Below are positions 1,179-37,200 of a DNA stretch of 64,000 nt, in pieces (position 1 is the stretch's first letter; every line of letters starts with the position of its first letter). A program made the translations under genes and the position numbers. The stretch comes from a virus. Lineage: Duplodnaviria > Heunggongvirae > Uroviricota > Caudoviricetes. Location of the stretch: the IMG/VR virus record IMGVR_UViG_3300014204_006419. The stretch is one strand, 5' to 3'. Under the pieces are notes generated by a model. It saw nothing but the letters and a program-made list of their open reading frames with translations, was not told the DNA's origin and did no database searches.

Positions 1179-1649
1179 CTAAAATGCTGCTTCATTCAGC
1201 TCACGGTAAATCAAGTCCGTAGCCCAGGTATCTGCGTTCTTTACACGCACAGAATTTAATCTGCATTTTACCTGGTCTATTGTTCCTTCCAGGTTGACTT
1301 GCTCGCCCCAGTCTTTCATTACTTTCTTAGCTGCGTTAAGGTAAACTGCATCAGAATAATTGCGGTTAAAGAAGATGTAGTGATTTCCGTATGGTCTGCC
1401 ATTGTAGGTCTCTAGGTCTTGCATTCCATCAAAATCGCAGCCATGGTACTTTCCAGCGACTGCTTCTACTGCAGCTCTAGTTGCTCCATCTGTCCAGTCT
1501 ACGTTTATGCTAGAGCCACCTGCGTATCTGTCCAATCTGACACTGAACTTTATTGCTGGAAAATGTTCCTTCAGGTCTTTCCTTACCAACTTTGCTACTT
1601 CGGCTGCGTCAATATAACTTCCCACAACTTTCATCCCCACGAGAGTCAT
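1179..1649 (-). CDS. hypothetical protein (true start may be the downstream Met at 1634)
   Basis: 156-aa ORF. The annotated ATG lies in the loop of the conserved leader hairpin. The SD-like GGGGATGAAAGTTGTG context favours the second Met. Confidence 0.45.
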   Translation of the reverse strand: MTLVGMKVVGSYIDAAEVAKLVRKDLKEHFPAIKFSVRLDRYAGGSSINVDWTDGATRAAVEAVAGKYHGCDFDGMQDLETYNGRPYGNHYIFFNRNYSDAVYLNAAKKVMKDWGEQVNLEGTIDQVKCRLNSVRVKNADTWATDLIYRELNEAAF

Positions 1650-1705
1650 CTCTCGTAATGTATCTCTTATGAACCTACTAGTATATAAAGGTATCTGTTA
1701 ATCCA
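1636..1705 (-). promoter_or_regulatory. conserved promoter/5'-leader module, copy A (TATA 1682-1689, hairpin 1639-1656)
   Basis: On the minus strand: TTTATATACTAGTAGGTTCATAAGAGATACATTACGAGAG-ATGA-CTCTCGTGGGG. 7-bp stem, ATGA loop. Confidence 0.6.
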
Positions 1706-1725
1706 TTGGTTTAGTCCTTTCGTCT

Positions 1726-2058
1726 TTATACGGTTACGAATTTGTCTCCACACTTCGAACAGAACCATTTTCCGTTTACCCATCCGCCGTACTCTTTCTT
1801 TGTTCTGACCTTGTTGCAGTACTTGCAGTGATACTCTTTTTCATTTGAGTCTAGTGGCTGATTTAGTGATGGAGTTGGAGTATATCCGACTTCCTCTTGT
1901 TGTTCTTCCACCAAGAAGATTCTGTCATAATTCTCGAATTCAATGAAAGGAATCTCTAGGTCAATTGCTAGGTCTCTCCTTACATGCCAGTCTCCTTCAA
2001 GCTTCTGGAGAAGCCTGTCAAACTCTTCTACTTTCAATGTTGTCACTTCGAGTTCCAT
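1726..2058 (-). CDS. hypothetical protein with C-terminal zinc ribbon
   Basis: 110 aa. CKYCNK..CSKCGDK motif pair. Confidence 0.4.
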   Translation of the reverse strand: MELEVTTLKVEEFDRLLQKLEGDWHVRRDLAIDLEIPFIEFENYDRIFLVEEQQEEVGYTPTPSLNQPLDSNEKEYHCKYCNKVRTKKEYGGWVNGKWFCSKCGDKFVTV

Positions 2059-2064
2059 ATTTTT

Positions 2065-2484
2065 TCACCTTTTGATTCTGAACTTGAGCGTTACGTACTC
2101 TGTCTTCTCTTGGATGTATGGTATGCGGAATGAACGGTCAGAAACATATTGCTCAACTAAATCCCATCCATTCTGCCCTGCCAATTCGATTAACTGCTTG
2201 AGTGTGGACATTCTGTTCTCAGTATTGATTTCTTCATCTGTTTTTGGTTTGCACATTTGTGTTATATCTTGCCAGGAACTATTTGGTACATTGTTCATAA
2301 CCTCACCTTGTTTTCCGTATAAAATATTCATACACGTTCTGCATTTTCTTTCACTTTCTGGAATTCCATCCTCGCTTACTAAAATGTCATGGTCAATCAT
2401 GCGATATGCGTGACATAGCGCATTTCCATTTTGATTTGCTGCATGGTACACGATGCTTCTCTTGAACCAACCTTTGATACCCAT
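2065..2484 (-). CDS. hypothetical protein
   Basis: 139-aa ORF, co-directional, tightly packed. Confidence 0.4.
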   Translation of the reverse strand: MGIKGWFKRSIVYHAANQNGNALCHAYRMIDHDILVSEDGIPESERKCRTCMNILYGKQGEVMNNVPNSSWQDITQMCKPKTDEEINTENRMSTLKQLIELAGQNGWDLVEQYVSDRSFRIPYIQEKTEYVTLKFRIKR

Positions 2485-2636
2485 GTCACTTACCTCGGAT
2501 TATTGCTAATGCTTCTCTTCTTTGAATATATGGATTTCCATTCTCTGAATCCAATATTCTTTCTACTTTCTTCAACAATTTTATTGCATCTTCAGTTTCC
2601 ATTTAAGTCACCTTCATTTACTTCTTAACTAGCCTC

Positions 2637-3053
2637 TTATTTCTTTATTGGTTCTAATCCGATTGATTCTGCTTTGTCGTAGCAATCATCGCAGCTTATG
2701 AATTGCTTTCCATCTACTTCGCGGGAATAAATAGTTTCTCCAGCACGTTTACACTTTGGGCAAACTGCATCCTCACACCATCCATAAACGTGCCTCTTCA
2801 TTCCTTCCCAAGTACCTAGAATACCAACCTTTGCTCCTTTGAGGTCTGCGTTCTTTACAACTCTGCAAAGTACATCTTTTGGATTATCTTGACTCTCTTT
2901 TGCGCCAATCTTCTTGGCTTCCCAGTAGCTTCTTGCGATTACTCCTACACCACCGTCAGTCGGGTCATCATTCACGCTTACGAAATACGCTTTGAGTTCG
3001 TCCACTTCATCACCTTTTGATTTCACTTTTGCTCTCTTGAATTGCTCTTCCAA
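2637..3053 (-). CDS. hypothetical Cys-rich protein
   Basis: 138 aa. CPKCKR..CDDC motifs. Confidence 0.4.
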   Translation of the reverse strand: MEEQFKRAKVKSKGDEVDELKAYFVSVNDDPTDGGVGVIARSYWEAKKIGAKESQDNPKDVLCRVVKNADLKGAKVGILGTWEGMKRHVYGWCEDAVCPKCKRAGETIYSREVDGKQFISCDDCYDKAESIGLEPIKK

Positions 3054-3279
3054 AATCGTTAGCGCATTCGACTAAAACTCTGGCAAAGAATTGCTCTCGT
3101 GTTTCAGATGTTGGAATCGGGAACATATTTGCGTCATCGCAAGCGATAACATAATGCTTTCCGCAACCTTTACATTCGTAATAGTCATATCCCCTTCTCC
3201 TATTTGGTGTTAGGTAATGCCAAGAGAATAACTCGGCTTTTATCTCGTTGCAGAATCTACAGGTATAATCGTGGCTCAT
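3010..3279 (-). CDS. small zinc-ribbon protein
   Basis: 89 aa. CRFCNE..CKGCGKHY. The 5' end overlaps the neighbouring gene, so the start is uncertain. Confidence 0.35.
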   Translation of the reverse strand: MSHDYTCRFCNEIKAELFSWHYLTPNRRRGYDYYECKGCGKHYVIACDDANMFPIPTSETREQFFARVLVECANDFGRAIQESKSEIKR

Positions 3280-3291
3280 TTTATCCCCCTT

Positions 3292-3600
3292 TCAAACATC
3301 TGCAAACTCAAACACAGGGATGATTTCTCCATCTACGTTTTCTACCTCAAGCGTATTGAATTTGAACAGCCCACCGAGTGTGTAATTGCATGGCTTCTTT
3401 TTGTTTCCTATCTCTCCCTTACTCTCTGGCAGCCAACGCCCGATACAGGAGTAAAATACGACCTCATCAGGATTCACTCCAATCGCTCTGAAATCCTGTG
3501 GTGTCTGCACATTTCCGCATTGACAGCATTTGAATCTCCACTTCGATGGGTCTTTCCCGAAGCGTCTTTCGCCTTCTGCAATCCATTCTGAATATTTCAT
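3292..3600 (-). CDS. hypothetical protein
   Basis: 102 aa, CCQCGN motif. Confidence 0.4.
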   Translation of the reverse strand: MKYSEWIAEGERRFGKDPSKWRFKCCQCGNVQTPQDFRAIGVNPDEVVFYSCIGRWLPESKGEIGNKKKPCNYTLGGLFKFNTLEVENVDGEIIPVFEFADV

Positions 3601-3618
3601 TCGTCTTATTCCTGTTAT

Positions 3619-3978
3619 TTAATCACCCTTTGGTTTACTATTCTTCTCTTGCCATTTTCTAATAAAATCCATTCGGGCTTCTTCAAGTTTAAGTTCTTCG
3701 TTATTTGCACAACTACTTATCCTTTTCAGTTGTACTTCAAATGCATTAGTTAAATATACCGTGCAGTATCTGTCTATTATGCGAGATAGTTCTATTCCAT
3801 CTTTGGATAATCTGTCTATGCCTGCATCTAAGAATATTGCATCGTGCAGTTGCTTTCTATTGTCCTCAAATTTTTGTAGGTCTGATTTGTTACCAATATT
3901 CAGATGTGCGATATACTTATCTAGTTTGGTTTTGTTGATAGTAAATTTTCCAAGTTTTATCTTTACGATTTTAATCAC
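3619..3978 (-). CDS. hypothetical protein
   Basis: 119-aa ORF. Confidence 0.4.
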   Translation of the reverse strand: MIKIVKIKLGKFTINKTKLDKYIAHLNIGNKSDLQKFEDNRKQLHDAIFLDAGIDRLSKDGIELSRIIDRYCTVYLTNAFEVQLKRISSCANNEELKLEEARMDFIRKWQEKNSKPKGD

Positions 3979-3987
3979 CTTGTTTTA

Positions 3988-4069
3988 TGCCCTCGGTTGG
4001 ATTTGAACCAACGATTTCTCTCCCAAGGGAAAGATGTTTTGCCATGACGTCTATGCAAACTACGAGGAC
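3988..4069 (-). tRNA. tRNA-like element, aberrant (82 nt): canonical acceptor and T-arm but irregular D/anticodon region
   Basis: Minus-strand sequence GTCCTCG-TA...GTTGG-TTCAAAT-CCAAC-CGAGGGC-A. The acceptor stem pairs 7/7 and the T-loop is perfect. The middle cannot be folded as a standard cloverleaf. Confidence 0.3.
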
Positions 4070-4329
4070 ATTTGGAGAGGTTGGTGGGTGGGGTTGTGCA
4101 CGTGGGCGTGCAACGAAATAAGCCAACCCTCTCCGTTCGAGCCAAGCATAGAATTTCCGTGCTTGGTTTCTCGGTCTAGATTTGTTTTATCGTTACTCCT
4201 TCCTCAACTCCGCATTCAGGGCAGTGGAAGGTTGTTGGTACTTTTTGTTTCTGGTTATAGCGGGTATTGACTGGTTCTAGTATTCCACTGAATCCGCAAT
4301 CGCAAATCAATTCATATTGATTTCCCATG

Positions 4330-4686
4330 TTAATCACCAATTACTTCTTCCCATCTCTTGATTACGCTTTCAATTAATGATAGAATTCCTGCGAGCTGGT
4401 CAGAAGAGTCACAGGTCTTCAGTATCCCTGGGTGGCTCCAAGCAATACCAACCCAGTCTCCTTCTTGAAAACTTACTCCAAGAAATTCTCTTCGTAGCAG
4501 TCCTGCGTTTTTAAGTTTCACATAAGCGCAGAAGTAATTTTCTCCTGGTGGGCAGTCATCCGTTTTTCTGACCTCAACTTCCTTGCCACGAATGTTCAGC
4601 TTTGTAAATGGTAAGGTATTAAATCCTAGTTCGTCTGTCTCGAAGCACTTGTTCTTGTATCTGTCTTCCATACAATCACCTTGCAT
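4330..4686 (-). CDS. hypothetical protein
   Basis: 118-aa ORF. Confidence 0.4.
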   Translation of the reverse strand: MQGDCMEDRYKNKCFETDELGFNTLPFTKLNIRGKEVEVRKTDDCPPGENYFCAYVKLKNAGLLRREFLGVSFQEGDWVGIAWSHPGILKTCDSSDQLAGILSLIESVIKRWEEVIGD

Positions 4687-4888
4687 CTTTCAATTTATCT
4701 ATTACGGATACCAATTTTGTTTTCTCCCTACCTTCTCGCAAACCTGCGATTTCATCTCCTTGGATATTTGTTGCTTGGTTAACGTAATATTCAATTGCAG
4801 TAAGTGCGTGGTTTATCTCACTCTTTGTTAGTTCAATCTTTACCGTTATCCGCACCCTCAAACTTCTTTTTAATTTTGTTATAATCAT
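4676..4888 (-). CDS. hypothetical small protein
   Basis: 70-aa ORF. Confidence 0.3.
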   Translation of the reverse strand: MIITKLKRSLRVRITVKIELTKSEINHALTAIEYYVNQATNIQGDEIAGLREGREKTKLVSVIDKLKDAR

Positions 4889-5315
4889 TCTCTACAATAG
4901 TTCCCGAAACTGTTTCTGTCTTTCCACATTTTCTGCAGATTCGGTCATGCTGCGTCGGATACGAAGTTCGTACAATATTGCTATAGACCCACACATGCTT
5001 GCATTTTGCATCCAGTTTTCGATTAGCTTCGTGTTCAGCGAATTCATCTTTCTCGTGAATCTCTCTTGCAAGTTTTTCGAATTCATTGTCCTCTCTCCAA
5101 TCTTCGGTCATATATTCTACTTCTTTATATGCTTCTTTCCAAGCTTTCTCATCAATCCCTTTTGCTTCTAGTACTCTGAACATTGACTTGACTTCCCAGC
5201 ATCTACCACAATCTTGGCACTGATAAAGTTCATTGTATCCATAGCCAAGTTTTCGTGCATTGTTCTTGTCACAAAACATACAGTGTTCGTTATAATCTCT
5301 GCTCATGAACATCAT
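4833..5315 (-). CDS. multi zinc-ribbon protein
   Basis: 160 aa. CMFCDK, CQDCGRCW, CRKCGK motifs. Confidence 0.4.
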   Translation of the reverse strand: MMFMSRDYNEHCMFCDKNNARKLGYGYNELYQCQDCGRCWEVKSMFRVLEAKGIDEKAWKEAYKEVEYMTEDWREDNEFEKLAREIHEKDEFAEHEANRKLDAKCKHVWVYSNIVRTSYPTQHDRICRKCGKTETVSGTIVENDYNKIKKKFEGADNGKD

Positions 5316-5457
5316 CTCCAGATATTATATTGGTCATCGGCTTTCATTGGCGACTAAGGTGGTGGAAATAGGGCGACTTTTACTATGCCTCAAGCCTCGG
5401 TAATTCGTGCATTAGTGTGATTCCTCCTTCAGCATTTTGAGCACGGGTTTCGCGTCA

Positions 5458-5640
5458 AAAGCATCGCAGTATTTCTTGATTTCTTCCTGGTTTGTTTCTT
5501 TTGTTTAGTGTACCTATTGCGCAGATTACAAACGCTGCTGCGATATACGAAGACGATGCTTCGTAGTTACCACTGAGATTCTGGAATACTGCTAAGATTA
5601 TGCACAACAACCAGATGAACCATAGACTAATATTTGCCAT
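5458..5640 (-). CDS. small membrane protein (MANISLWFIWLLCIILAVF...)
   Basis: An internal Met of track ORF 5455..5724 is preceded by a GGAGGTTGATTAAA SD context. The upstream part of the track ORF overlaps the acidic-tail gene in another frame. Confidence 0.3.
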
Positions 5641-5643
5641 TTT

Positions 5644-5820
5644 AATCAACCTCCTCGACCTCTTCAACTTCTTCAACTGCGCTTGGTGCGTAGTCATCAC
5701 TCCATACCTTATTCTGTAAGTCATCCCAGACTATCTTTGCGATTATCGCACAAGCTCCAAAGATAAAAATAACTCCAAGTCCGTATGCGACTGTCATTGC
5801 CATTGCGAGTTCTCCTACCA
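5644..5820 (-). CDS. small membrane protein with acidic EEVEEVEEVD tail (59 aa, below the ORF-track cutoff)
   Basis: Hand translation: MVGELAMAMTVAYGLGVIFIFGACAIIAK...EEVEEVEEVD. Stop overlaps the next gene's SD/start (GGAGGTTGATTAAAATG). Confidence 0.3.
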
Positions 5821-5821
5821 T

Positions 5822-6370
5822 TTAGAGCACACCCCAGTTCGGATTGTATGAATAGTAACATATCTCAGTTGATACTGGTCTTGCAGCCAGTTCTCCATAC
5901 AACTCGTTCACCTTGCTATTCAGGTTGTTGAGTTCGATTCTCTGCCTGGCTATCTTGTTTTCTAACAGAGTCTTATCACTCTTGAGAGCATCGAGCTTGT
6001 ATCCAATCTCTTTCATTGCGATGTCAAGTGCCATTACGCTTAGGTCTTTTGAATCTGCTACAAGCTGCTTGTTCTTGGCACGCTCTTTGATTAGAAGTGC
6101 TACAAGGCAGTCTGTCTTGCTGAGCTTGCAGTCGCAGTACATGTCATGTAGGTTACTATAATCGTTTACGTGACAGTCTACCGAGTGGTCGCAGGCTGGG
6201 CACAATAATTCTACCTTTTCTACCTTGAAATATTTGTTCCTTGGAATTGACCCCTTGAACTCTTCAACAAGAATCTCTCCGCTGCTTTCGCTGATTGCCT
6301 TTACAGTACAGATGTTATCCTGGTCAAACATATTGACCGAAACCTTGTCTCCGACTTTTAGTTCTCCCAC
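5822..6370 (-). CDS. coiled-coil / Cys-containing hypothetical protein, GTG start
   Basis: 182 aa. GTG start directly downstream of conserved leader module copy B. Confidence 0.45.
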   Translation of the reverse strand: MGELKVGDKVSVNMFDQDNICTVKAISESSGEILVEEFKGSIPRNKYFKVEKVELLCPACDHSVDCHVNDYSNLHDMYCDCKLSKTDCLVALLIKERAKNKQLVADSKDLSVMALDIAMKEIGYKLDALKSDKTLLENKIARQRIELNNLNSKVNELYGELAARPVSTEICYYSYNPNWGVL

Positions 6371-6450
6371 TTAAATCAACCCCTACGAGAGACATCCCTC
6401 GTAATGTATTCTCTTATGAACCTACTAGTATATAAAGGTATCGTTTAGTT
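6371..6450 (-). promoter_or_regulatory. conserved promoter/5'-leader module, copy B (TATA 6429-6436, hairpin 6384-6403)
   Basis: Same module. Stem TACGAGAG/CCCTCGTA with one mismatch, ACAT loop, then GGGGTTGATTTAA-GTG. Confidence 0.6.
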
Positions 6451-6458
6451 GAAATGAT

Positions 6459-8734: not shown

Positions 8735-8760
8735 ATTCGTTCACCTCGGTGATTATTCTC

Positions 8761-9063: not shown

Positions 9064-9072
9064 GCATTCACC

Positions 9073-10390: not shown

Positions 10391-10733
10391 CCTCTTGTAT
10401 ATCTCTGCAATTCTTGCAACTTATATATTTCCTGCCTATGTGATTTACACTGTGACGTACCACATCAAATTCAACTCCTCCGCAGTTTATGCAGATTAAG
10501 TCGTCTAGGTACTCTGTTGGTTTTGGATAACGGCAGTTCAATTCGATTTCACGTCGTTCACGATTCTTTGATATTGTGTGGAGTTCGTTTAGATTCCATA
10601 ATAGGTATAGAACTAAGATTACGATTAATTCGATGATTGATAAAATAAATATAACTAGTGTCTGCCCAGTAATGAGTGCAATAAAAAGATTGACTAATCC
10701 AAGTTTGATACAACCCTTTAGTAGTTCGTTCAT
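10368..10733 (-). CDS. membrane protein with C-terminal zinc ribbon (PTEYLDDLIC family)
   Basis: 121 aa. KPTEYLDDLICINCGG...CKNC. Downstream of leader module copy E. Confidence 0.45.
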   Translation of the reverse strand: MNELLKGCIKLGLVNLFIALITGQTLVIFILSIIELIVILVLYLLWNLNELHTISKNRERREIELNCRYPKPTEYLDDLICINCGGVEFDVVRHSVNHIGRKYISCKNCRDIQEGDLYELS

Positions 10734-10800
10734 TTAAATCATCCCAACGGTCATCCGTTCATGTAGTATCTCTGTACGCCAATATATTTAAACCTATCTA
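10734..10800 (-). promoter_or_regulatory. conserved promoter/5'-leader module, copy E (subfamily 2; hairpin 10746-10759)
   Basis: Minus strand: GGTTTAAATATATTGGCGTACAGAGATACTACATG-AACGG-ATGA-CCGTT-GGGATGATTTAA-ATG. Confidence 0.6.
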
Positions 10801-12005: not shown

Positions 12006-12044
12006 TTCTTACATCTTTCTGTTAGATAGATTATTTCCATATTC

Positions 12045-15422: not shown

Positions 15423-17933
15423 CTATCCACTCATCGACATTCCTACATTCTTGTATATCTTCACTTGCGAATTATCGAATACTTTTGTGAATCCGTCTAG
15501 CTGTCCTAGGAAGAACGCAGAATAAAAGTTCGAGTCATAGAACTTTCCCTTTCTGTCTGCCCATCCACTGATTCCATCCTGCCAGACTGAAGAATCTTTG
15601 AAGTATAGTAGCATATAAACTACATACTGCTTTCCATTGGCTTGCGTTAGTTGAGGGCTGACTGGGATTGCACGATTCTGCTTAGTCATATTGTCTTGAT
15701 ATACCATTACTCCGTTTGTTGTGTTCATGCAGTACTTTTCTCCAAGAGTTGATTGTACTCTAATCATTCCGTTTGTGCAGTAATCAGATATACTGCTTGT
15801 GCTGCTCTCTGGAACAAATATGTACTCTGGACTGTGCTCCTTCTCGCAGTTAGATGAACCAATTCCATATGTCTTTGCATAGGTCATATTTGTTTCGTTG
15901 TTATCTACGCAGGACAAGAAGTTCAGTGCACCCCATTTCTGGATTAAGTCAACGTCGAATACTGCATAGGTTGAATTATAGGTCTGCATGAATTGTGAAA
16001 GCGATTCTGGACTTGCATTTACATATTCGTTTGCAACCATCAGGTCTAGAGTTGTGTTTGTGTGGTCATTTCTTGTCAAGCAATCTCTTTCTCCGAAATA
16101 GTTAATCCAGTGTCCATAATCCCACCATGAAACGATTCTTGAATCATTCGTTGTATTATATTTTATGAAGTCCATTGTTTGCGTCCAGTACGCTGGTAAC
16201 TTTGAGCAGTACAGGTATGTTGGTGTTTCCAGTCCATCGTTCTGCATCTTTGCGCAGTCTACAGTATCGTTTGTGAAATAATTTCCTACGCTTACTTGAA
16301 TTAGGTTTGGCACGGCTCCATCAAAACGCATTGTCGCTAAGTTCGGTTCTAGCAAAGTTATTGCCAAGAATGCTACGATTATCGTGTTCACTAGTTTCTT
16401 GTCTTTCATTCTTCTTTCTAATTCTCCGAGCAGTATTCCGATTGACAAGATAAGCATCAAGCCCAGTTGCAAGAGATACTTGCTCTTCATTATTCCGATG
16501 AATGAAATCGGGAATATCAAGAGCAGAAGCAAGATTGCGACCTTTGAGCCTTTGTAAGCATTGTAGCCCAATACTAATGCTGTTGCTGCAAGTACTAAAT
16601 GAATGAACGATATGCCTGGCAATATTTGGTATCCTAGAATATCAAACGCTCCAGATAACTGACCCATTGTTGGTGCTTCTTCTGCCACGGTCATAAATAA
16701 TGCTTCACTGGTTCCTGCAAATCCAACTGCAGTCATTACGTAGTCTTTTATCATTCCAGCCAATGGCGTGATGAATAATAGAACTACAAACGCAATTGAA
16801 ACGTATTCAAGTACTTTGATTCTATCTTTCTGTTCTTTGACAAATTTGTTTCCTGCTACCCATAGAGCAACTGCAAACAAGTATGGCAGAAGTACTACTG
16901 CAACTCTTGTTATCAATGGGTATCCTGGAACATATGTTGACATGATTATCGCGGTTGCTAATATTGTGCCAACTATGATTCCGTTGTGGATTAAGAATTC
17001 TTTTGTGTCTTCTTTCTTGATGAAGTCCAGTGTTGCTCTTACTCCAAGATATGCCCCATAAACTAGTGAGAGCACAATGAAGTACTGCGACCCTGCGATT
17101 ACACTTATCGCTGCGATTGCCGAGAGGATTGCGAATTTAACATCCTTTCTGTTTACTAGGAGAACATATGCTGCGATGAAGAACATCAATGCGAATATTC
17201 CGTATGGCTGAATTTCTGCTTCTCCAGCTGCAAACTTTTGGATAAGCAATGGAAGTACTGCTGCTAACCCCGCTGCAACTAATCCAACTTTTGTAGTGTA
17301 CATCTCTCTGATGATTATGAACACCAGGAAACAAATCAGCATTCCGACAATTGGTGGATATATGTTTGAAACTACGGTCAGCATATCTTGGTTAAATGTA
17401 GTTCCTTGCGATAACGAATACCAGTTTGCTTCAAGATAGTTTGAAACTGGCGCGAGCCTGTGTCCACCACCTTGTGGGAACCATGCAGTAAAATCATGAA
17501 TTGGTATGCTTCCTTGGGTCAATATGTATTGTGTTGTGAAAATGTAGTAGTACGGGTCGAACTCGTAGAAGGTTGTTGAAAGACTTTGCATCCTTGCCCA
17601 TAAAGCGAAGACCATGATTAGAACTAGGATTACATATGGCAGACTTTTCTTGCTTAGCAGGTCTGGAAGTTGGAGGTTTAGTTTTGGTATTCCAGTTATG
17701 AAACATGAGAGCAACAATAATCCCGCGTTGATTACGAATGCTAATTCATAGCTGTACGAAATTCCGATTAATGAAGTCAAGAATAATATGAATGCGGGGA
17801 GCATCATACTTGTACAGATTCCGAATATGATTTTGTCGATTAGATTGAGCTTTGTATTTTTGAGTAATCCCAGCGTTATAAGAACGCTAGGCAATATCCC
17901 AAATAAAACAAGTGCAAAATAGTTAATGTCCAT
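15423..17933 (-). CDS. aglB: oligosaccharyltransferase AglB/STT3
   Basis: 836 aa. About 13 N-terminal TM helices. Diagnostic WWDYGHW motif (SWWDYGHWINYFGER) in the periplasmic C-terminal domain. Confidence 0.85.
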   Translation of the reverse strand: MDINYFALVLFGILPSVLITLGLLKNTKLNLIDKIIFGICTSMMLPAFILFLTSLIGISYSYELAFVINAGLLLLSCFITGIPKLNLQLPDLLSKKSLPYVILVLIMVFALWARMQSLSTTFYEFDPYYYIFTTQYILTQGSIPIHDFTAWFPQGGGHRLAPVSNYLEANWYSLSQGTTFNQDMLTVVSNIYPPIVGMLICFLVFIIIREMYTTKVGLVAAGLAAVLPLLIQKFAAGEAEIQPYGIFALMFFIAAYVLLVNRKDVKFAILSAIAAISVIAGSQYFIVLSLVYGAYLGVRATLDFIKKEDTKEFLIHNGIIVGTILATAIIMSTYVPGYPLITRVAVVLLPYLFAVALWVAGNKFVKEQKDRIKVLEYVSIAFVVLLFITPLAGMIKDYVMTAVGFAGTSEALFMTVAEEAPTMGQLSGAFDILGYQILPGISFIHLVLAATALVLGYNAYKGSKVAILLLLLIFPISFIGIMKSKYLLQLGLMLILSIGILLGELERRMKDKKLVNTIIVAFLAITLLEPNLATMRFDGAVPNLIQVSVGNYFTNDTVDCAKMQNDGLETPTYLYCSKLPAYWTQTMDFIKYNTTNDSRIVSWWDYGHWINYFGERDCLTRNDHTNTTLDLMVANEYVNASPESLSQFMQTYNSTYAVFDVDLIQKWGALNFLSCVDNNETNMTYAKTYGIGSSNCEKEHSPEYIFVPESSTSSISDYCTNGMIRVQSTLGEKYCMNTTNGVMVYQDNMTKQNRAIPVSPQLTQANGKQYVVYMLLYFKDSSVWQDGISGWADRKGKFYDSNFYSAFFLGQLDGFTKVFDNSQVKIYKNVGMSMSG

Positions 17934-18595: not shown

Positions 18596-18610
18596 TAATC
18601 ATCATGTTTC

Positions 18611-18670
18611 CATCTCAACGGTCATCCGTTCATGTAGTATTTCTATAAGCCAATATATTTAAATGTATTG
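18611..18670 (-). promoter_or_regulatory. conserved promoter/5'-leader module, copy F (subfamily 2; hairpin 18617-18630)
   Basis: AACGG-TCAT-CCGTT hairpin plus CATGTAGTAT box and an AT-rich TATA region. Confidence 0.55.
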
Positions 18671-18672
18671 GT

Positions 18673-22416: not shown

Positions 22417-22421
22417 AGGTA

Positions 22422-22871: not shown

Positions 22872-23210
22872 TCACTTCACGTATATTACCTTGCTAGTGT
22901 CTCCATTCCAGTCGACTTCTAGTCCAAGGCTCTTTGCAAGTTCCGCACACCTATCTGCAGAACGTTTTATCTCTGCTTCGTCATCTCCACAGTAACGGAT
23001 AGGCAGCATACCATTTCCTCTACCATATCCTTTGCCTTCGAAATCATCGTTATCCTGGCGATGATAATAGAATGCAGTCTTTTTGGTCTCTGGAAGTGCA
23101 GCGATAGCACAGCCAGAGCAACACATAAAGTTCTGCCTTGCAACATACCCTTCTTTTCTAAGCTGTTTGAACAGCTTAGTAACCTTAATTTTAGTTTCTG
23201 TTTCTCCCAC
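22872..23210 (-). CDS. hypothetical protein, GTG start
   Basis: 112 aa. GTG start with the same first codons (GTG GGA GAA) as 5822..6370. Downstream of leader module copy C. Confidence 0.4.
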   Translation of the reverse strand: MGETETKIKVTKLFKQLRKEGYVARQNFMCCSGCAIAALPETKKTAFYYHRQDNDDFEGKGYGRGNGMLPIRYCGDDEAEIKRSADRCAELAKSLGLEVDWNGDTSKVIYVK

Positions 23211-23290
23211 TTAAATCAACCCCTACGAAGGTCATCCTTCGTAATGTATTCCTTATGAACCTACTACTATATAAAGGTATCGTTTAATGC
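23211..23290 (-). promoter_or_regulatory. conserved promoter/5'-leader module, copy C (TATA 23268-23275, hairpin 23224-23243)
   Basis: Stem TACGAAGG/CCTTCGTA (8 bp, compensatory relative to copies A and B), TCAT loop, GGGGTTGATTTAA-GTG. Confidence 0.6.
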
Positions 23291-27097: not shown

Positions 27098-27101
27098 AGT
27101 T

Positions 27102-28856: not shown

Positions 28857-28861
28857 TCAAA

Positions 28862-29044: not shown

Positions 29045-29045
29045 T

Positions 29046-29658: not shown

Positions 29659-29663
29659 CTAGT

Positions 29664-29951: not shown

Positions 29952-29953
29952 GT

Positions 29954-30277: not shown

Positions 30278-30296
30278 CTTATTACCTCCGTTAATG

Positions 30297-30719: not shown

Positions 30720-30808
30720 ATTGGATTATCTCTTCTGTTTCATCATCTAGACAAAAGTTTATTCGTTTGAATTCGTACTCGCTTGGTTTACCAAAAGTTT
30801 TCATGCTA

Positions 30809-30870
30809 ATCATCCAACGGACATCCGTTCATGTAGTATCTCTGTACGCCAATATATTAAAAGGTTTCGG
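30809..30870 (-). promoter_or_regulatory. conserved promoter/5'-leader module, copy G (subfamily 2; hairpin 30816-30829)
   Basis: AACGG-ACAT-CCGTT hairpin, CATGTAGTATCTCTGTACGCCAATATATT box shared with copy E. Confidence 0.55.
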
Positions 30871-30871
30871 T

Positions 30872-31183: not shown

Positions 31184-31184
31184 T

Positions 31185-31907: not shown

Positions 31908-31957
31908 ATCACCTTTGGTGAGGCTTTGGGGTAATTTAGTGAAAGCCTAACTATGCC

Positions 31958-33256
31958 TTAATATGGCTTCTCTGGTTTCTTTCCCAATGAAGACAACACA
32001 GATGCTAACTTTGATGTATTCTCAGCACCAAGTGTCTCCATCATCAGATTTGCGGCTACACCCTCTTTTGCACCTACGCTGAAGTTTCCAAGAACTCCTC
32101 CGCTGAAGATTTCTTGGGTACTTCCCGCAACGATATGGATTGTCGCTTTCTCGAATCCTTTCTGTAGTGCATATTCATGGGCAAGCCCAATCTCTTTTAC
32201 GGCTTTAATCTTTTCGATGTTTGTTGCAGAATCGTTGTATTTCTGCTGCGCCTCGGCAAGTTTCTCGATACCTTCAGCATCGGCAACCTTCTTTGCTTTG
32301 ATGATTTCTGCCTCTGCAAGACCTGTTGTCTTTGTTCTTGCTGCGTCACCTTCTGCTTCAAGTTCGGCTTTCTTCTTGAATGCTTCCGCATTCTTTGTGA
32401 TAACTTCACGGTTTACATCGGCATTCCCGACATCAAGCTTTCTCTTTGCCTCAACCTTCTGTTGGTTGGCTTCGGCTTCCATTTCTGCAACCTTCTTTGA
32501 CTGGTCTTGCTGTGCAATTCCAATCTGCCTGTCCTTTTCAATCTGTCTCTTGCGGTACTCTTCTTCTGTAGATGCACGAATCAATTCTGCCTCTTTCAGA
32601 TTCTGAGCTTCTGAAATCTGTGCCCTCTTGTTCTCTTCTGCTGTCTTGACACGAGCATCTGCACTGATTGTTGCCGCAGACTTTCTCTCAATATCTTTGA
32701 TGATTGTACTCTCTTCTGCATCGGTTATTGCAATAATCTCAAGGTCAACTAATGACAGACCCCAACGTGGGAATACGTCCTTCACCTCATCAGTAACTGC
32801 TTTTACCAGCTGTGCTCTGTTCTTGAATATATCAGAAATTGTTTGCTGTGTTGCTACGGTTCTTCCGATAGATGCAAGAATTGCTTCGAAGTCACTGGAG
32901 ATTGCAATTGGTTGGTCTTCAAACTTATACTTCTCTACTGTAATTTCAGTTCTTTCCGCAGCCAAAAGTGGGTCGCTGATATTAACGAAGCAGACCAAAT
33001 CGCACATGAACTTCGCCATGTTTGAATCGTTCAACTTTACGTCTTTAATATCTATCCTCAAGTTATTGAGAGGAAGACGAATCACTTTTGTTACTCCTGG
33101 AACTATCCAGTAACTCGATTTCGTTTTCTGTCCCTCGATTACACGCGGAGAAAATAGTTCTTTCTTATCGAACATATTCCTAACGTGTGCTTCGTTGGCT
33201 GGTACAACTTTGTAAAGACCAACTGCTCCTCCTACTAAGTCCAATATTTCGCTCAT
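31958..33256 (-). CDS. SPFH/band-7 flotillin-like protein
   Basis: 432 aa. N-terminal SPFH-like region followed by a long A/E/K-rich coiled coil (AEAE..KR repeats) typical of flotillins. Confidence 0.7.
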   Translation of the reverse strand: MSEILDLVGGAVGLYKVVPANEAHVRNMFDKKELFSPRVIEGQKTKSSYWIVPGVTKVIRLPLNNLRIDIKDVKLNDSNMAKFMCDLVCFVNISDPLLAAERTEITVEKYKFEDQPIAISSDFEAILASIGRTVATQQTISDIFKNRAQLVKAVTDEVKDVFPRWGLSLVDLEIIAITDAEESTIIKDIERKSAATISADARVKTAEENKRAQISEAQNLKEAELIRASTEEEYRKRQIEKDRQIGIAQQDQSKKVAEMEAEANQQKVEAKRKLDVGNADVNREVITKNAEAFKKKAELEAEGDAARTKTTGLAEAEIIKAKKVADAEGIEKLAEAQQKYNDSATNIEKIKAVKEIGLAHEYALQKGFEKATIHIVAGSTQEIFSGGVLGNFSVGAKEGVAANLMMETLGAENTSKLASVLSSLGKKPEKPY

Positions 33257-33270
33257 TCAAATCCCTCCAT

Positions 33271-33471
33271 TTATCTTACACTATTCCAATCGCAAGAAAT
33301 CCCGCGTGAATATTCTAGGCAGGTTATTTGCGTACCGTTTTTTAAGATTGGGTGAACTTCATAGATTCCGTAAACTGTTCCACCGTATGAATCATCAGTG
33401 GTAGACACATTTGTGCATCCAAAAAACAAAAGTCCTACAAGTAATACTAACGCTAAAAGCTTTCCGTTCAT
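33271..33471 (-). CDS. small secreted/lipoprotein-like protein
   Basis: 66 aa. Signal peptide with LFFGC. Confidence 0.3.
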   Translation of the reverse strand: MNGKLLALVLLVGLLFFGCTNVSTTDDSYGGTVYGIYEVHPILKNGTQITCLEYSRGISCDWNSVR

Positions 33472-33594
33472 GCTAATGCACCTCTGGAAATAAATCCACA
33501 GAATACTCCAACTCCATAGCTTCCGAGCATCAATAAAACAATTGCAACGAAAGTTGTTTTTCTTTCTACAGTAACAAATTCAACCATACCCATG

Positions 33595-34227
33595 TTAACC
33601 ACTTCCTGTGATGTTGAATACTACTGTTGGTGCGGTTTGTGCAGTATCTGTTGCAGCGAACATCTTCCACTTGTTTGCGTTGAAGTTGAACATTCCAGCG
33701 ATAATATTATTCGGGAATGTCTGGAGCGTGTTCTTGTAGTTCTGTACTTCAGTGTTGTACTCGTCTCTCTCGTACTTCACACGGTTCTCAGTTCCTTCTA
33801 GTTGACTCTGCAAATCTCTGAATGCTTGTGTTGATTGAATTGTTGGATATGCTTCAACCACTACTAGCAATCTTGAGATTGCAGATTCCATTTGTGTGTC
33901 TGCAGCATTCACAGCATCAGTATCTCCTGGCTGTGCGTTTGCAACGGATTGTCCTGCGGTTCCTGCTTGGCTTCTGTACTGCGCTATCTTGGTTAGTGTT
34001 GATTGCTCAAAGTTTGCTGAACCCTGCACAGTTGCGACCAAATTTGGTACCAATTCTGCTCTGCGCTGATATACACTCTGTACGTTTCCCCAGTGTGCTG
34101 CAACACTGTTATCTGCTTGCACCATACTATTGTAGATTCCTCCAATTGTAGATATTCCGATTAACGCTACAACTGCAAGAACCGTTAGCACTGCAATCAA
34201 ACCAATTCCTAGTTCTTTCAATCCCAT
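33595..34227 (-). CDS. LemA family protein
   Basis: 210 aa. N-terminal TM, then HWGNVQSVYQRRAELVPNLV (LemA consensus W..V...RR.DLIPNLV). Confidence 0.75.
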   Translation of the reverse strand: MGLKELGIGLIAVLTVLAVVALIGISTIGGIYNSMVQADNSVAAHWGNVQSVYQRRAELVPNLVATVQGSANFEQSTLTKIAQYRSQAGTAGQSVANAQPGDTDAVNAADTQMESAISRLLVVVEAYPTIQSTQAFRDLQSQLEGTENRVKYERDEYNTEVQNYKNTLQTFPNNIIAGMFNFNANKWKMFAATDTAQTAPTVVFNITGSG

Positions 34228-34236
34228 ATTTTCACC

Positions 34237-34854
34237 TCAAACTCTCTTGACTCTAAATGGAATTTCACTGTCCAGTTTAGTCTCACATGTGCATGGAATA
34301 CAGTAGCACTTCATGCACTCTCTGACTATATCCAAGTGTTCCATATGATTTTCGCGTGATGAATTCTCGTTGAAACGCAGTTGAATGTCCCGTTTCATTT
34401 TTCTTTGTGGGTGGATTTCTCTGCGGTACCAGAATCCTCCTTCTTTCTTGAAGTATTTCTCTTTGACCAACTGTGACAAACTTTCATCGTCTTCTCTCAT
34501 TTGATATATTGGTGCGTCCATTGGAATCATTTCATAATCTACCTTTGATGGAACTTTCTCTCCGAATATCCCGCATCCCCAGTAATTGAATGCTTCATCA
34601 AAACCGCAAATCTGTATTGTGTTCTCGGTTTCGTATTTTGTATCTGCAGGAGCAAATACTTGCCCAACTTCCTTACCATTCAGCATAATTCTAATCTGGT
34701 TAGGAGATTCTAGTTCAAATGTTATTTTTCCTTTCATATCAATCACCTTAGAACTTTCCTCCTCCGCCTCCAAAACTTCCTCCTCCGAAACTGCCTCCAC
34801 TGAAACCTCCACTAGATGGGATACTGAAGCTTCCACTGTCGTGGTCATCATCAA
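34237..34854 (-). CDS. hypothetical protein
   Basis: 205 aa. The N-terminus overlaps the TPM gene, so the true start is probably internal. Confidence 0.3.
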   Translation of the reverse strand: MMMTTTVEASVSHLVEVSVEAVSEEEVLEAEEESSKVIDMKGKITFELESPNQIRIMLNGKEVGQVFAPADTKYETENTIQICGFDEAFNYWGCGIFGEKVPSKVDYEMIPMDAPIYQMREDDESLSQLVKEKYFKKEGGFWYRREIHPQRKMKRDIQLRFNENSSRENHMEHLDIVRECMKCYCIPCTCETKLDSEIPFRVKRV

Positions 34855-35515
34855 ACATGCTCATTCCTGCAAGTACCCCGATTCCAAAATCATTATCGTC
34901 TTCTTTATGATGTCTTCCTTTTGTTGAACCCGAACCACCAAGAAAAACTGGTATTGCCACACAAAGTATTCCGATTAAAACTAGAAAAGGGAATATCTGC
35001 CAGTAACTAGTCATTATAACTTGTGGGTCATTTGTAGTAGTCTGCGGAGTATTTTGACTAACGATAGTCTTGTTCATCTCAGAAATTATGTATGCAAATC
35101 CATCGTAGTACGACCTGTTGTCAAAATATGGTCTAGCGGTTCTTCCGATTTCAGCCACTCGTGCATCGGTTATCACAGATTCGATTCCTCTCCCAGTTGC
35201 AATTGCGCCGCCTTTCTCGTTATTCATTGACCATAAGATTACAATTCCGTTATCTGTAGCTCTCTTTCCAACTCCGTTCTGTTCTCCTATATGGTTTGCG
35301 TAGAGTGTGCTGTCTTCTCCGTTTGTTGAATTTAATGTGAGTACTGCGATTTCTACGCTCGTATTCTTCTCGATTGTAGCAATCTGTAAGTTTAGATTGT
35401 TGATTTCAGTTGCAGATAGCAGATGCGCAGTGTCGGTCACGTATGGTGTCATTGTTGGATATGCGATAGCTAGTACCGAAAACATAACCAATGCGATTAA
35501 AATATTGAGTTTCAT
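34748..35515 (-). CDS. TPM-domain (TLP18.3/Psb32/YgcG-like) protein with C-terminal TM and Gly-rich tail
   Basis: 255 aa. Signal peptide, TPM fold motifs (YVTDTAHLLS..., IAVLT..., GIVILWS), TM helix, GGSFGGGSFGGGGG tail. Confidence 0.7.
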   Translation of the reverse strand: MKLNILIALVMFSVLAIAYPTMTPYVTDTAHLLSATEINNLNLQIATIEKNTSVEIAVLTLNSTNGEDSTLYANHIGEQNGVGKRATDNGIVILWSMNNEKGGAIATGRGIESVITDARVAEIGRTARPYFDNRSYYDGFAYIISEMNKTIVSQNTPQTTTNDPQVIMTSYWQIFPFLVLIGILCVAIPVFLGGSGSTKGRHHKEDDNDFGIGVLAGMSMFDDDHDSGSFSIPSSGGFSGGSFGGGSFGGGGGKF

Positions 35516-36171
35516 CGTGCATCACCGTTCATAAACTTCAGCGAGTTAATCCACAGGTATCCAATTACTAGTACAATGAATACAAGTATGCCAACTGCGC
35601 CAAGAATAATGCTTTGAATTACGCTTGGAGGAAGCGAAATTACATATCCAATTGCATTCCCTATTTGTTGAAGTACCCAGAGAATTATTCCAAGTACTGT
35701 GAGTATAAGACCGATTATTGTGAATATGTGAAGTTCGTACACTACTGCTGGACTGAAAGAAATTATTTTTCGTAATAACGCAAATGCAAGTTTATTGGTA
35801 GTTTCATTTGGTTTGCTTCTATCAACTTTCCAGTACATAATTTCCATTATCACGAATGCAATTCCTACGTATACACTAAGTACAATAGCCGATATTGATG
35901 CCAATTCGGTATGTACTGTAGTGCACCATATTATGAATAGTATTGGGCATATGATTAACCAAAATGTATTACCAATCGCTTTGAATTTGTGACAAGTTAA
36001 ATCCCAATAAAACTGGTCGAGTTCGCGTTTTGAGCTAGCCATCTCAAAACATTCCTGACAAATAGGAAAGTACACACCGTCATCTTTTATGTCTCTTTTC
36101 ATTACGGGTATATCTAACATTTCGCAGTAATGGCAGACTCCGATTTCCTCTTGCTCGAATTTCTTGACCAT
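35512..36171 (-). CDS. N-terminal zinc-ribbon + polytopic membrane protein (tandem paralog A)
   Basis: 219 aa. CHYCE...CQEC, 4-5 TM helices, shared WKVDRSKP motif. Confidence 0.45.
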   Translation of the reverse strand: MVKKFEQEEIGVCHYCEMLDIPVMKRDIKDDGVYFPICQECFEMASSKRELDQFYWDLTCHKFKAIGNTFWLIICPILFIIWCTTVHTELASISAIVLSVYVGIAFVIMEIMYWKVDRSKPNETTNKLAFALLRKIISFSPAVVYELHIFTIIGLILTVLGIILWVLQQIGNAIGYVISLPPSVIQSIILGAVGILVFIVLVIGYLWINSLKFMNGDAR

Positions 36172-36816
36172 TTAATCACAATCCTTGAACTTCAGTGAGT
36201 TCAGATATGCTCCAATGTATCCGATTGTGGTAATCAATACAATTCCAAGAGTACCGATTATGAATTTGATTATTTCATTTGGTGGTAGGGTTACGAAATA
36301 ACCGATTATCCCTTCTGAAATCATTACTAACGTGAATATCGCAGCACCAACGGTTTCTACTGCGGATACTAGTATTACTGCGGGAATTAGTGAAACTAGT
36401 TTTCTGTATATCGCAAAAACGAGTTTGTTTTCTCCCTTTTTTGGCTTTGAACGGTCTGCTTTCCAGTAGAACAGTTCCATTAGAGTAAGTGCAAGTAGTA
36501 CCGCAAATCCCATAGTCATTAAAAATATCCCTGGAAATCCTGCTACAATACCCAATGATATGAGCAGTGCTACTGGGATTAATAGGACTAATGGCGACTC
36601 TGAGCTGAGACAGTTCTGATAAAAATTAACTAGCTTATCTGATTTTATTGCGTTAAAGCAGTCCTTGCAGATATATTTTGTATTCCATCTATCGCAACCT
36701 AGCGTGCTCATTAGTACAACATTTTCTTTGTTACAGTAATTGCAGGTACCTGTTCTTATTACTTTGATACCAGACCCGATGGGTTTGAATTCGTTTGGCA
36801 TTTCCATGACAATCAC
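36172..36816 (-). CDS. N-terminal zinc-ribbon + polytopic membrane protein (tandem paralog B)
   Basis: 214 aa. CNYCNK...CKDC, shared WKADRSKP motif. Same architecture as 35512..36171. Confidence 0.45.
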   Translation of the reverse strand: MIVMEMPNEFKPIGSGIKVIRTGTCNYCNKENVVLMSTLGCDRWNTKYICKDCFNAIKSDKLVNFYQNCLSSESPLVLLIPVALLISLGIVAGFPGIFLMTMGFAVLLALTLMELFYWKADRSKPKKGENKLVFAIYRKLVSLIPAVILVSAVETVGAAIFTLVMISEGIIGYFVTLPPNEIIKFIIGTLGIVLITTIGYIGAYLNSLKFKDCD

Positions 36817-36817
36817 T

Positions 36818-37117
36818 TCAAATCTCTTTAAGCTTCTCTTTCATTACCCCTGCAGCGGTAACTAGCGCAATCGTAGACATCAATAGAAGTCCTGCACCCA
36901 CTAGTCCACCTAGGAAGATAGTTCCACTTGCGATAATGATTCCCATGAGAATCATCCCAAGACCTATAATTAGTGAATAAACATATGCTCTGCTTGCTGT
37001 TTGCTCTCTCTGATATTCGAGTGCTTCTGTCTTCATTTTATCTATTGAATCTTGTGTCAAGTCACCTACTGACTCGATTTTATCAATTTCACTTTCATCA
37101 GTGAACTGTTCAGCCAT
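36818..37117 (-). CDS. small membrane protein
   Basis: 99 aa, 2 TM. Downstream of leader module copy D. Confidence 0.4.
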   Translation of the reverse strand: MAEQFTDESEIDKIESVGDLTQDSIDKMKTEALEYQREQTASRAYVYSLIIGLGMILMGIIIASGTIFLGGLVGAGLLLMSTIALVTAAGVMKEKLKEI

Positions 37118-37200
37118 CTAATTCAACCCCACGAAGGACATCCTTCGTAATGTATTTCTATTTGAACACACTGTTATATAAAGCTATCGTTTAGTCGATA
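37118..37200 (-). promoter_or_regulatory. conserved promoter/5'-leader module, copy D (TATA 37175-37182, hairpin 37131-37148)
   Basis: Stem ACGAAGGA/TCCTTCGT (8 bp) with a 2-nt CA loop. GGGGTTGAATTAG-ATG. Confidence 0.55.

Follow-up and report, generated by a model that had tools for sequence, protein, structure and literature searches.

The 64,000-nt stretch of DNA analysed here (the window) belongs to the IMG/VR virus record IMGVR_UViG_3300014204_006419. It matches a 114,686-bp metagenomic contig (ENA ERZ27247350 k141_2421657), and identical fragments are present in SRR6484787. The genes of this element are small, tightly packed and nearly all on one strand. Those that could be recognised encode an AglB-like oligosaccharyltransferase, glycosyltransferases of the GT4 and GT2 families, a GDP-mannose dehydratase, three radical-SAM (S-adenosylmethionine) proteins, MazG, a phosphoribosyltransferase, a T4 Rnl1-like RNA ligase, the Band7, LemA and TPM membrane proteins, an archaeal SAM synthetase and an integrase, alongside six tRNAs. 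No capsid, terminase or portal protein was found among the 30 larger open reading frames (ORFs) of the window compared with Pfam or the 20 compared with PHROGs; the carrier is likely a virus, and its integrase, tRNA cluster, Rnl1-like ligase, Ro60 protein and giant ORFs would be in keeping with a large virus or with a mobile element of another sort. How is the transcription of such a gene array organised? Seven intergenic sites on the minus strand share one layout of TATA box, initiator, hairpin, Shine-Dalgarno (SD) sequence and start codon, and these cassettes head seven consecutive co-directional blocks of roughly 10-20 genes each, tiling about 37 kb. Very probably they are a family of element-specific promoter/leader cassettes driving seven successive accessory-gene transcription units.

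Read in mRNA sense, each cassette starts with a TATA box, followed by 25-26 nt ending in (A)TACAT, the hairpin, a G-rich SD-like stretch and, after another 5-7 nt, an ATG or GTG. There are two classes, subfamily 1 and subfamily 2, which are interleaved along the direction of transcription in the order 1-2-1-2-2-1-1. The copies are spaced 4.4-7.9 kb apart, filling most of the few sizeable gaps in the one-strand array, and are named here by the positions used in an earlier, sequence-only reading of this DNA. Scores are those of a covariance model (R1) trained on the four subfamily-1 copies only, with an 8-bp stem, and all copies lie on the minus strand. Copy 37118 (37115-37190, subfamily 1, 94.0 bits) comes first in the direction of transcription. 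It has the sequence ACGATAG, resembling a B recognition element (BRE), a TATA box at 37175-37182, TACAT at about 37151-37155 and a hairpin at 37129-37150 whose core, ACGAAGG-AUGU-CCUUCGU, is extended by two outer U-G pairs; the SD is GGGGTTGAA and the ATG lies at 37115-37117. Copy 30809 (30802-30870, subfamily 2) scores 22.2 bits (E 0.03) with the model built from subfamily 1 only; here the TATA box TTTTAATA is at 30856-30863, TACAT at 30831-30835 and the hairpin AACGG-AUGU-CCGUU at 30816-30829, with GGATGAT as SD and the start codon at either 30811-30813 or 30802-30804 (both ATG). The third copy, 23211 (23208-23283, subfamily 1, 97.9 bits), carries its TATA box at 23268-23275, TACAT at 23244-23248, the hairpin UACGAAGG-AUGA-CCUUCGUA at 23224-23243, the SD GGGGTTGAT and a GTG at 23208-23210. 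Next come two subfamily-2 copies with the same hairpin, AACGG-AUGA-CCGUU. One is 18611 (18600-18671, 20.4 bits, E 0.07), with the TATA box at 18656-18663, TACAT at 18632-18636, the hairpin at 18617-18630, the SD GAGATGG and an ATG at 18603-18605; the other is 10734 (10731-10800, 29.7 bits, E 9e-4), with the TATA box at 10785-10792, TACAT at 10761-10765, the hairpin at 10746-10759, the SD GGGATGAT and an ATG at 10731-10733. The last two copies are again of subfamily 1. In 6371 (6368-6444, 99.4 bits) the TATA box is at 6429-6436, TACAT at 6404-6408 and the hairpin, UACGAGGG-AUGU-CUCUCGUA with an internal G-U pair, at 6384-6403, before the SD GGGGTTGAT and a GTG at 6368-6370. In 1636 (1623-1697, 93.0 bits) the TATA box is at 1682-1689, TACAT at 1658-1662 and the hairpin, ACGAGAG-AUGA-CUCUCGU plus an outer U-G pair, at 1638-1657, before the SD GGGGATGA and a GTG at 1623-1625, with an alternative in-frame ATG at 1632-1634.

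Is this set complete? R1 was run over the entire window, on both strands and with filters off. The four training copies scored 93-99 bits (E about 1e-16), the three subfamily-2 copies, and nothing else, took the next three places (20-30 bits, E 1e-3 to 0.07), and no eighth copy was found in the window, all remaining matches being weak (at most 16 bits). The sequence-only reading had reported seven copies and proposed such a scan; all seven are present at the sites it named, and the model recovers these and no others. Neither the 8.3 kb beyond the window start nor the 5.7 kb beyond its end holds a further cassette. Core words, searched exactly and near-exactly, occur at the cassette sites only, and in an independent repeat search the cassettes were the sole intergenic repeat families of the window (D12-D16), all others sitting within the coding repeats of a 3771-amino acid (aa) ORF. 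Similarity between copies runs from about 8 nt before the BRE to 6-9 nt inside the first cistron, where GTGGGAGAA is shared by two copies and GTGGGAAGT is found in a third. Compared with the independently assembled ENA contig, the window shows 3 nt differences over 21 kb, and all three fall within copy 23211, outside the stem (window 23245-23267 versus L001 14950-14985); true polymorphism, conversion of one copy by another and cross-talk between repeats during assembly could each account for them. A segmental duplication, which the sequence-only reading had named among the findings that would undo its claim, was rejected: 13 flanking proteins are unrelated in all-against-all BLASTP (best E 0.01 over 29 residues). 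A miniature inverted-repeat transposable element was also rejected, the cassettes having neither terminal inverted repeats nor target-site duplications.

The first half of each cassette looks like an archaeal promoter. The 8-bp TATA box is TTTATATA in four copies, TTTAAATA in two and TTTTAATA at 30809, where the earlier reading had expected TTTAAATA. It had also described one conserved box per class. These boxes are exact in some copies only, the subfamily-1 form AGAGAATACATTAC occurring at 6371 alone, with AGAGATACATTAC at 1636, AAGGAATACATTAC at 23211 and TAGAAATACATTAC at 37118, and in subfamily 2 copy 18611 having TAGAAATACTACATG; what all seven share is TACAT, 17-18 nt downstream of the TATA box in every copy. 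The pyrimidine-purine step of TACAT (C-A) lies 22-23 nt past the TATA box, so that the box would occupy about -31 to -24 relative to the predicted start, a spacing that is canonical for archaea. The mapped start sites of repeats in the archaeal virus HF2 show the same spacing (PMC8707807). A subfamily-1 transcript is thus predicted to open with 5'-AUUACGA... and a subfamily-2 transcript with 5'-AUGAACGG..., leaving 3-4 nt ahead of the stem. Counted from the last TATA base, the conserved ACG of the 5' arm begins after 25-26 nt whichever the class (pairing in subfamily 2 begins 1 base earlier). This fixed distance from an archaeal-type promoter, already pointed out in the sequence-only reading, bears out its placement of the hairpin: because the spacing does not vary, the hairpin falls at the predicted 5' end of the transcript. 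A bacterial promoter reading was rejected, since sigma-70-like sites are not enriched (56 against 50.7 expected) and the cassettes carry archaeal TATA boxes.

The promoter half can be separated from the hairpin. The subfamily-1 BRE/TATA half AAACGATACCTTTATATACTAGTAGG recurs without a hairpin, both in this element and on other archaeal viral contigs. The best R1 match after the seven copies (16.3 bits) is such a relative, GATACCTTTATTAACTTCAAGGTTTATAAG at 37278-37337 on the plus strand, in which the hairpin region of the model is deleted; it points in the opposite direction to the cassettes, upstream of a plus-strand ORF at 37331-37630. A fifth copy of the BRE/TATA half alone, AACAAATCGAAACATTTATATACTA at 37978-38002 on the minus strand (14.9 bits, repeat family D14), likewise has no hairpin and no minus-strand ORF behind it, and is antisense to plus-strand ORFs at 37331-37847. 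A closely similar 28-mer, AAAACGAAAGATTTAAATACTAGTAAG, is found nine times in 21 kb of L012, a 109-kb contig that is distantly related (47% identity between the RNA ligases); its leaders there are short or missing and the hairpin is absent. The degenerate promoter pattern CGAWASNTTTAWATANTAGTA picked up 56 IMG/VR loci, none with a hairpin. The promoter half thus belongs to a common type of strong archaeal promoter; the hairpin leader, within the data covered, occurs in this element only. The two hairpin-less halves lie in a control-region-like stretch (37200-38400) directly upstream of the first cassette. There, the plus-strand half at 37278 precedes two small plus-strand ORFs, one of them a zinc ribbon, the minus-strand half at 37978 would yield RNA antisense to them, and an HNH-like 88-aa ORF lies at 38390-38656 on the minus strand. 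A distinct promoter-like motif in two copies, CAAACC-N6-TTTTTAAA..GAAGCNAAAAGCCGTCA..AAGGTG, precedes genes near the giant ORFs (about 59340-59395 on the minus strand, and about 445-510 of locus L154) and may be a separate promoter class for that region. At 9780-10000 of L012, about 200 nt of GC-richer, non-coding DNA separate a promoter of the cassette type from the RNA ligase gene and are possibly a small RNA gene.

In the second half of the cassette, the hairpin consensus is ACG(RRG)G-AUGW-C(YYC)CGU, with the loop AUGA in four copies and AUGU in three; the sequence-only reading had both loops right, together with a 2-nt UG loop that is sterically impossible. Subfamily 2 corresponds to subfamily 1 minus 3 bp in each arm, the G-AUGW-C loop and closing pair being common to both. 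In each of the seven predicted leaders the hairpin is part of both the minimum-energy and the centroid fold, as 8-9 bp of about -10.5 kcal/mol in subfamily 1 and 5 bp of about -5 kcal/mol in subfamily 2. How does the stem vary? MAFFT could not structurally align the two classes, and a model-based alignment was used instead. Every one of its 47 stem cells holds a standard pair and both sides have changed in three of the eight pairs, counts that are biased towards the structure, as the alignment was fitted to it and covers seven paralogues; controls in which the 3' partner was slid by 1-3 columns gave no both-side changes. Within subfamily 1, two copies have G-C and two have A-U at one position of the stem, the adjacent pair forms the series A-U, G-U, G-C, and the outer pair is U-A or U-G. 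In copy 6371 the G-U pair gives the sense strand an advantage of 3.5 kcal/mol (-10.4 against -6.9 kcal/mol for the antisense fold), which favours RNA over duplex-DNA symmetry. Between hairpin and gene, the SD of the cassettes is a variant, GGG(G)NTGAT, as opposed to the classical (G)AGGTGA(T) of the element's internal genes. A G-rich SD is present as the earlier reading had claimed, its consensus being looser than stated, with six SD/spacer forms: GGGGTTGATTTAA, GGGGTTGAATTAG, GGGGATGAAAGTT, GGGATGATTTAA, GAGATGGAAAC and GGATGATTAGC.

Known structured RNAs were considered as well. At the gathering threshold, an Rfam search of the whole window returned the six tRNAs only, and two cassettes searched at E up to 1 returned nothing; the earlier reading had proposed an Rfam search as a check. 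On inspection, a K-turn (L7Ae) or box C/D motif was rejected, as the loop is 4 nt, the stem continuous and the sequence GGAUGAC, not UGAUGA, with no CUGA; a bulge-helix-bulge was rejected by inspection too. A terminator reading was discarded, with 14 terminator-like sites against 13.1 expected and the hairpin followed by GGGG, not by a T-run.

Does the complete cassette exist anywhere else? Exact-pattern IMG/VR scans for both classes gave no matches, and a scan of JGI metagenomes with the stem positions left free gave only two chance matches, on unrelated GC-rich or coding DNA. Protein-anchored IMG/VR searches with AglB and the RNA ligase found no close relatives, and an INPHARED megablast with 25 kb found no match. 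RNA-ligase homologues of 40-49% identity do occur on many long archaeal viral-like contigs; no hairpin was seen at the six loci read in three of these contigs, and the distant relatives L012, L016 and L156 have repeated promoters and no hairpin. R1 and a hairpin regular expression, applied to about 1.2 Mb of fetched loci from relatives and the host lineage (80 Micrarchaeota loci included), gave nothing convincing save L018, where a single TATA box, 25 nt, a 5-bp hairpin and an SD score 33 bits and are not repeated.

What could such cassettes do? Each copy would offer a strong canonical archaeal core promoter, made of a BRE-like purine-rich stretch, the 8-bp TATA box and the TACAT initiator. 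Judging from the geometry, transcription by the host RNA polymerase together with TBP and TFB would initiate at the A of TACAT, and the transcript would begin 3-4 nt before the 5- or 8-9-bp hairpin, which the ribosome-binding site and the first cistron then follow. The cassettes would launch or re-boost seven successive units over the approximately 37 kb of accessory, non-structural genes of the roughly 115-kb element, as a temporal or expression class of viral promoters. The hairpin itself would most likely be selected at the RNA level, as a 5'-proximal stem-loop common to seven mRNAs. Its most probable role would be to shield the 5' end from 5'-to-3' decay, to provide a standard context for translation initiation, or both; archaeal 5'-to-3' exoribonucleases are known, namely aRNase J and aCPSF2 (PMC7144898, PMC3792030). 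Serving as a common handle for one regulator would be a less probable role. A role at the RNA level is favoured because the variation preserves pairing, the G-U and U-G pairs lie on the sense strand, the two arms have lost matched segments and the hairpin always sits at the same place, the predicted 5' end. What can be read directly in the DNA is that the copies exist, keep a fixed geometry and have unrelated flanks, that their variation preserves pairing and that promoter half and hairpin are separable. Promoter activity, start site, temporal class and RNA-level function are what we infer from this, and we lean, on balance, towards the combined statement that these are promoter/leader cassettes whose hairpin acts as RNA.

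Several observations pull the other way. The whole-leader folds have unremarkable z-scores (-0.1 to -2.3). Covariation, which the sequence-only reading had taken as an argument for selection on RNA structure, is pair-preserving as claimed and weaker than implied: with no orthologous cassette in IMG/VR, JGI or the 1.2 Mb of loci, it comes from seven paralogues that amount to about three independent stem variants, a number with which significance of the R-scape type is unattainable, and every stem change is a transition passable through G-U. Template-switch correction of quasi-palindromes can, moreover, produce complementary changes without selection. The G-AUGW-C element is conserved across the classes, and a purely thermodynamic 5' stabiliser would not need it; this conservation hints at sequence-specific recognition, or simply at recent common ancestry. 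The start site is placed by geometry only. No oligo-T terminators precede the cassettes, so upstream read-through is possible and the hairpin would then be internal in some transcripts.

Is the inverted repeat perhaps read as DNA? A dimeric transcription factor of the element or its host could bind it at about +3 to +24, overlapping the start site, and switch the seven units together, either as a repressor blocking polymerase recruitment or as a temporal regulator, with the two classes representing two factors or two affinities. Many archaeal repressors bind just downstream of the TATA box, over the start site, and the inverted repeat occupies a position of this kind. The outer half-sites are invariant (TACGA/TCGTA in subfamily 1, AACGG/CCGTT in subfamily 2), whereas the variable arm positions change complementarily, which a protein site does not need, and the centre, ATGA or ATGT, is asymmetric. 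The G-T of copy 6371 breaks the DNA symmetry yet keeps the RNA pairing, and two copies lengthen the stem by U-G pairs only. The spacing of the half-sites differs by 6 bp between the classes, about half a helical turn, so that one factor cannot read both alike. Precedents from archaeal viruses speak for a DNA site: early genes have conserved regulatory sequences at the core promoter, including inverted repeats read as repressor sites (PMC11065993), and the gamma motif across the start site of HF2 is essential for activity (PMC8707807). The divergent control-like region directly upstream of the first cassette, with its small plus-strand ORFs and a zinc ribbon among them, is a further point in favour of a DNA site. 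Weighing these points, we regard a DNA operator as rather unlikely.

Could the hairpin instead be a dedicated RNA operator, with one protein encoded by the element or its host reading all seven leaders and coordinating the 37-kb region after initiation? The G-AUGW-C loop and closing pair, invariant while the stem varies freely, leave room for a specific binder. By analogy, such an operator could work through processivity of the lambda N/boxB kind across the 4-8-kb units, or as a translational operator. This more specific version of an RNA-level role is unlikely.

A further possibility is that the palindrome has no function and hitch-hikes in a recently copied cassette, spread by recombination and shuffling as proposed for the T4-type promoter-early stem-loops (PeSLs); the complementary changes would then stem from template-switch (quasi-palindrome) correction or gene conversion, and the repeats would serve mainly as homology patches for modular exchange. 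Within a class, identity is indeed very high over the entire 60-77 nt, including the normally unconstrained stretch between TATA box and initiator, and it continues 6-9 nt into unrelated coding sequences. Between the classes, however, that same stretch has almost fully diverged while a hairpin with the same loop is kept at the same distance. All three differences between the window and the ENA contig falling in one cassette are compatible with conversion between copies (or with assembly cross-talk), and the blocks headed by the cassettes are rich in ORFans, as in the PeSL precedent (PMC2839356, PMC4122927). Substitutions are about equally frequent outside and inside the stem, yet no stem change breaks a pair in the seven copies, and it is difficult to see how both arms could have lost a matching 3 bp unless pairing was selected for. 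A functionless palindrome is therefore, in our estimate, quite unlikely.

Finally, the AUG of the loop opens a mini-ORF of 4-7 codons, which stops exactly before the main start at 37118 (UAG-AUG) and 10734 (UAA-AUG), overlaps the start codon at 18611 and 30809 (AUGA) and is in frame with the gene at 1636, and the 3-nt difference in arm length between the classes keeps the frame; translation of this leader ORF might couple or gate the first cistron by termination-reinitiation, a curiosity that we consider very improbable, as in 6371 and 23211 the ORF runs out of frame 14-23 codons into the gene, the similarity of the peptides merely reflects that of the nucleotides, and the AUG, enclosed in a 4-nt loop, has no ribosome-binding site before it and lies about 11-13 nt from the predicted 5' end, so that it is neither leaderless nor SD-led.

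Which genes would the seven promoters serve? The block behind 37118 contains a 99-aa membrane protein, a pair of zinc-ribbon membrane proteins (35512-36816), TPM, LemA and Band7. The pair, called paralogous in the sequence-only reading, is so at 31% identity (E 6e-27). Behind 30809 lie the T4 Rnl1-like RNA ligase and GT2, and the block of 23211 extends from a DUF6891 protein through the phosphoribosyltransferase. The 18611 block comprises ORFs of 55 and 164 aa, the AglB-like protein (836 aa), GT4 and a radical-SAM protein; an aglB-like gene does lie behind a cassette, as the earlier reading had noted. A membrane/zinc-ribbon protein of 121 aa, MazG, a radical SAM-SPASM protein and GT4 follow 10734, about 12 small ORFans follow 6371, and the block of 1636 begins with an LPD29-domain protein. 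The picture of a regulon of small membrane and zinc-ribbon proteins did not hold: these are the first cistrons, followed in the blocks by genes for glycosylation, RNA repair and membrane proteins.

The AglB-like gene (15423-17933, minus strand) also says something about the host. Its closest relatives (42-49% identity) are on cellular contigs, beside TBP, Rpb4 and L21e, and of the 80 best loci in GTDB genomes almost all come from Micrarchaeota or related DPANN archaea, which points to the probable host lineage. A DPANN (Micrarchaeota-like) archaeon is thus the probable host on sequence grounds, and the approximately 115-kb element would equal about a tenth of such a host genome. The cluster of six tRNAs (44255-44745, plus strand) adjoins the integrase gene (45897-46592). 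ARAGORN calls one of them, at 44418-44504 (87 nt), a 'tRNA-Stop' with the anticodon TTA. TAA serves normally as a stop in the element (29 of 77 long ORFs), and the call may reflect an archaeal tRNA intron or a long variable arm, not a true suppressor. A Ro60/TROVE-vWA protein is encoded just outside the window on the same contig (L003 16316-17878); the Rnl1-like RNA ligase, an HD-domain protein and the tRNA cluster join it in a gene set for RNA repair and quality control. Two giant ORFs, both without a Pfam or PHROG match, occupy the far part of the window on the minus strand, one at 47571-58886 (3771 aa) and one at 60701-63856, which is complete on the contig (L154 1195-9051, 2618 aa). The 3771-aa ORF has periodic repeats of about 240 nt (units of about 80 aa), and the DNA of its C-terminal 100 or so codons is about 80% identical to a separate ORF at 58890-59321.

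Why would this matter? To our knowledge, almost nothing is known of how transcription is organised in large archaeal viruses and mobile elements, and even less of archaeal control after initiation. The element, whose host is probably a DPANN archaeon, brings its own kit for N-glycosylation and RNA repair, and the cassettes mark transcription-unit boundaries, aiding the annotation of an otherwise opaque 115-kb genome. They also form a natural series of seven promoters of identical geometry, with two classes, two stem lengths and compensatory variants, which can be transferred to reporter assays and could show whether a hairpin near the 5' end makes archaeal mRNA more stable or is recognised by a factor. 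Should the hairpin prove to be an RNA operator, the seven units would form the first regulon of this RNA-based kind in a virus or mobile element of archaea, the host here apparently being DPANN (Micrarchaeota-like); should it be a mere hitch-hiker, the element would add one more case of repeated viral promoter cassettes.

How do the cassettes compare with known systems? Bacterial and phage mRNAs can be stabilised by a hairpin within a few nt of the 5' end, and boxB of the lambda nut site, near the beginning of long early operons, combines a conserved hairpin loop with a stem that varies. The likeness of the cassette hairpin to either is one of working principle only; we know of no established archaeal or archaeal-virus example of a 5'-terminal stabiliser or a boxB, and no boxA-like partner or N-like protein was identified in the element, no test having been aimed at them. 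A loose likeness exists to the start-associated sequences (SAS) and extended start-associated sequences (ESAS) of cluster K mycobacteriophages (PMC3203893), conserved short sequences right before the start codons of a gene subset, with many repeats per phage genome, which are sometimes preceded by imperfect inverted repeats. Domain and sequence are different, though, SAS are not tied to a promoter at a fixed distance, and no compensatory stem variation has been described for them. Closer are the T4-type PeSLs (PMC2839356, PMC4122927), small cassettes of promoter and stem-loop that, as here, are repeated in ORFan-rich regions and have been proposed as regulatory units and homology patches for modular shuffling. 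PeSLs have bacterial sigma-70 promoters and their stem-loop lies upstream, terminating incoming transcription, whereas the present hairpin lies downstream of an archaeal promoter, without a U-tract and within the predicted leader. The early-gene motifs of SIRV2 and other archaeal viruses (PMC11065993) resemble the cassettes in having virus-specific sequence around a near-identical strong BRE/TATA core: they are repeated before many unrelated small genes of one genome, and the flanks of the core differ between viruses. Some contain inverted repeats, overlapping the BRE as presumed repressor sites; unlike these, the inverted repeat here is downstream of the predicted start site and its variation preserves pairing. 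The SIRV2-type motifs precede single early (anti-defence) genes, while the cassettes head long operons.

A close parallel is the class I intergenic repeat of HF2 (Russ, Pfeiffer and Dyall-Smith 2021, PMC8707807). HF2 also has seven near-identical copies, each about 56-58 bp long and comprising BRE, TATA box and a conserved motif across the start site, spread over about 33 kb of early/middle non-structural genes that include tRNA-repair genes, and a second, different repeat class serves other genes (PMC8707807). The position of the HF2 repeats is conserved across related viruses, and their promoter activity and start sites have been shown experimentally, as opposed to the sequence geometry relied on here (PMC8707807). 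There is no sequence similarity between the two systems, and no leader hairpin is reported in HF2, although a 9-bp inverted repeat replaces the gamma motif in one variant copy (PMC8707807). The HF2 classes are confined to separate genome arms, in contrast to the interleaved classes of the present element. The sequence-only reading had thought the whole module undescribed. A categorically new RNA class is not supported on present evidence, and repeated, virus-specific promoter cassettes are established (PMC8707807, PMC11065993, PMC2839356, PMC4122927); what appears to be new is the leader hairpin attached to them.

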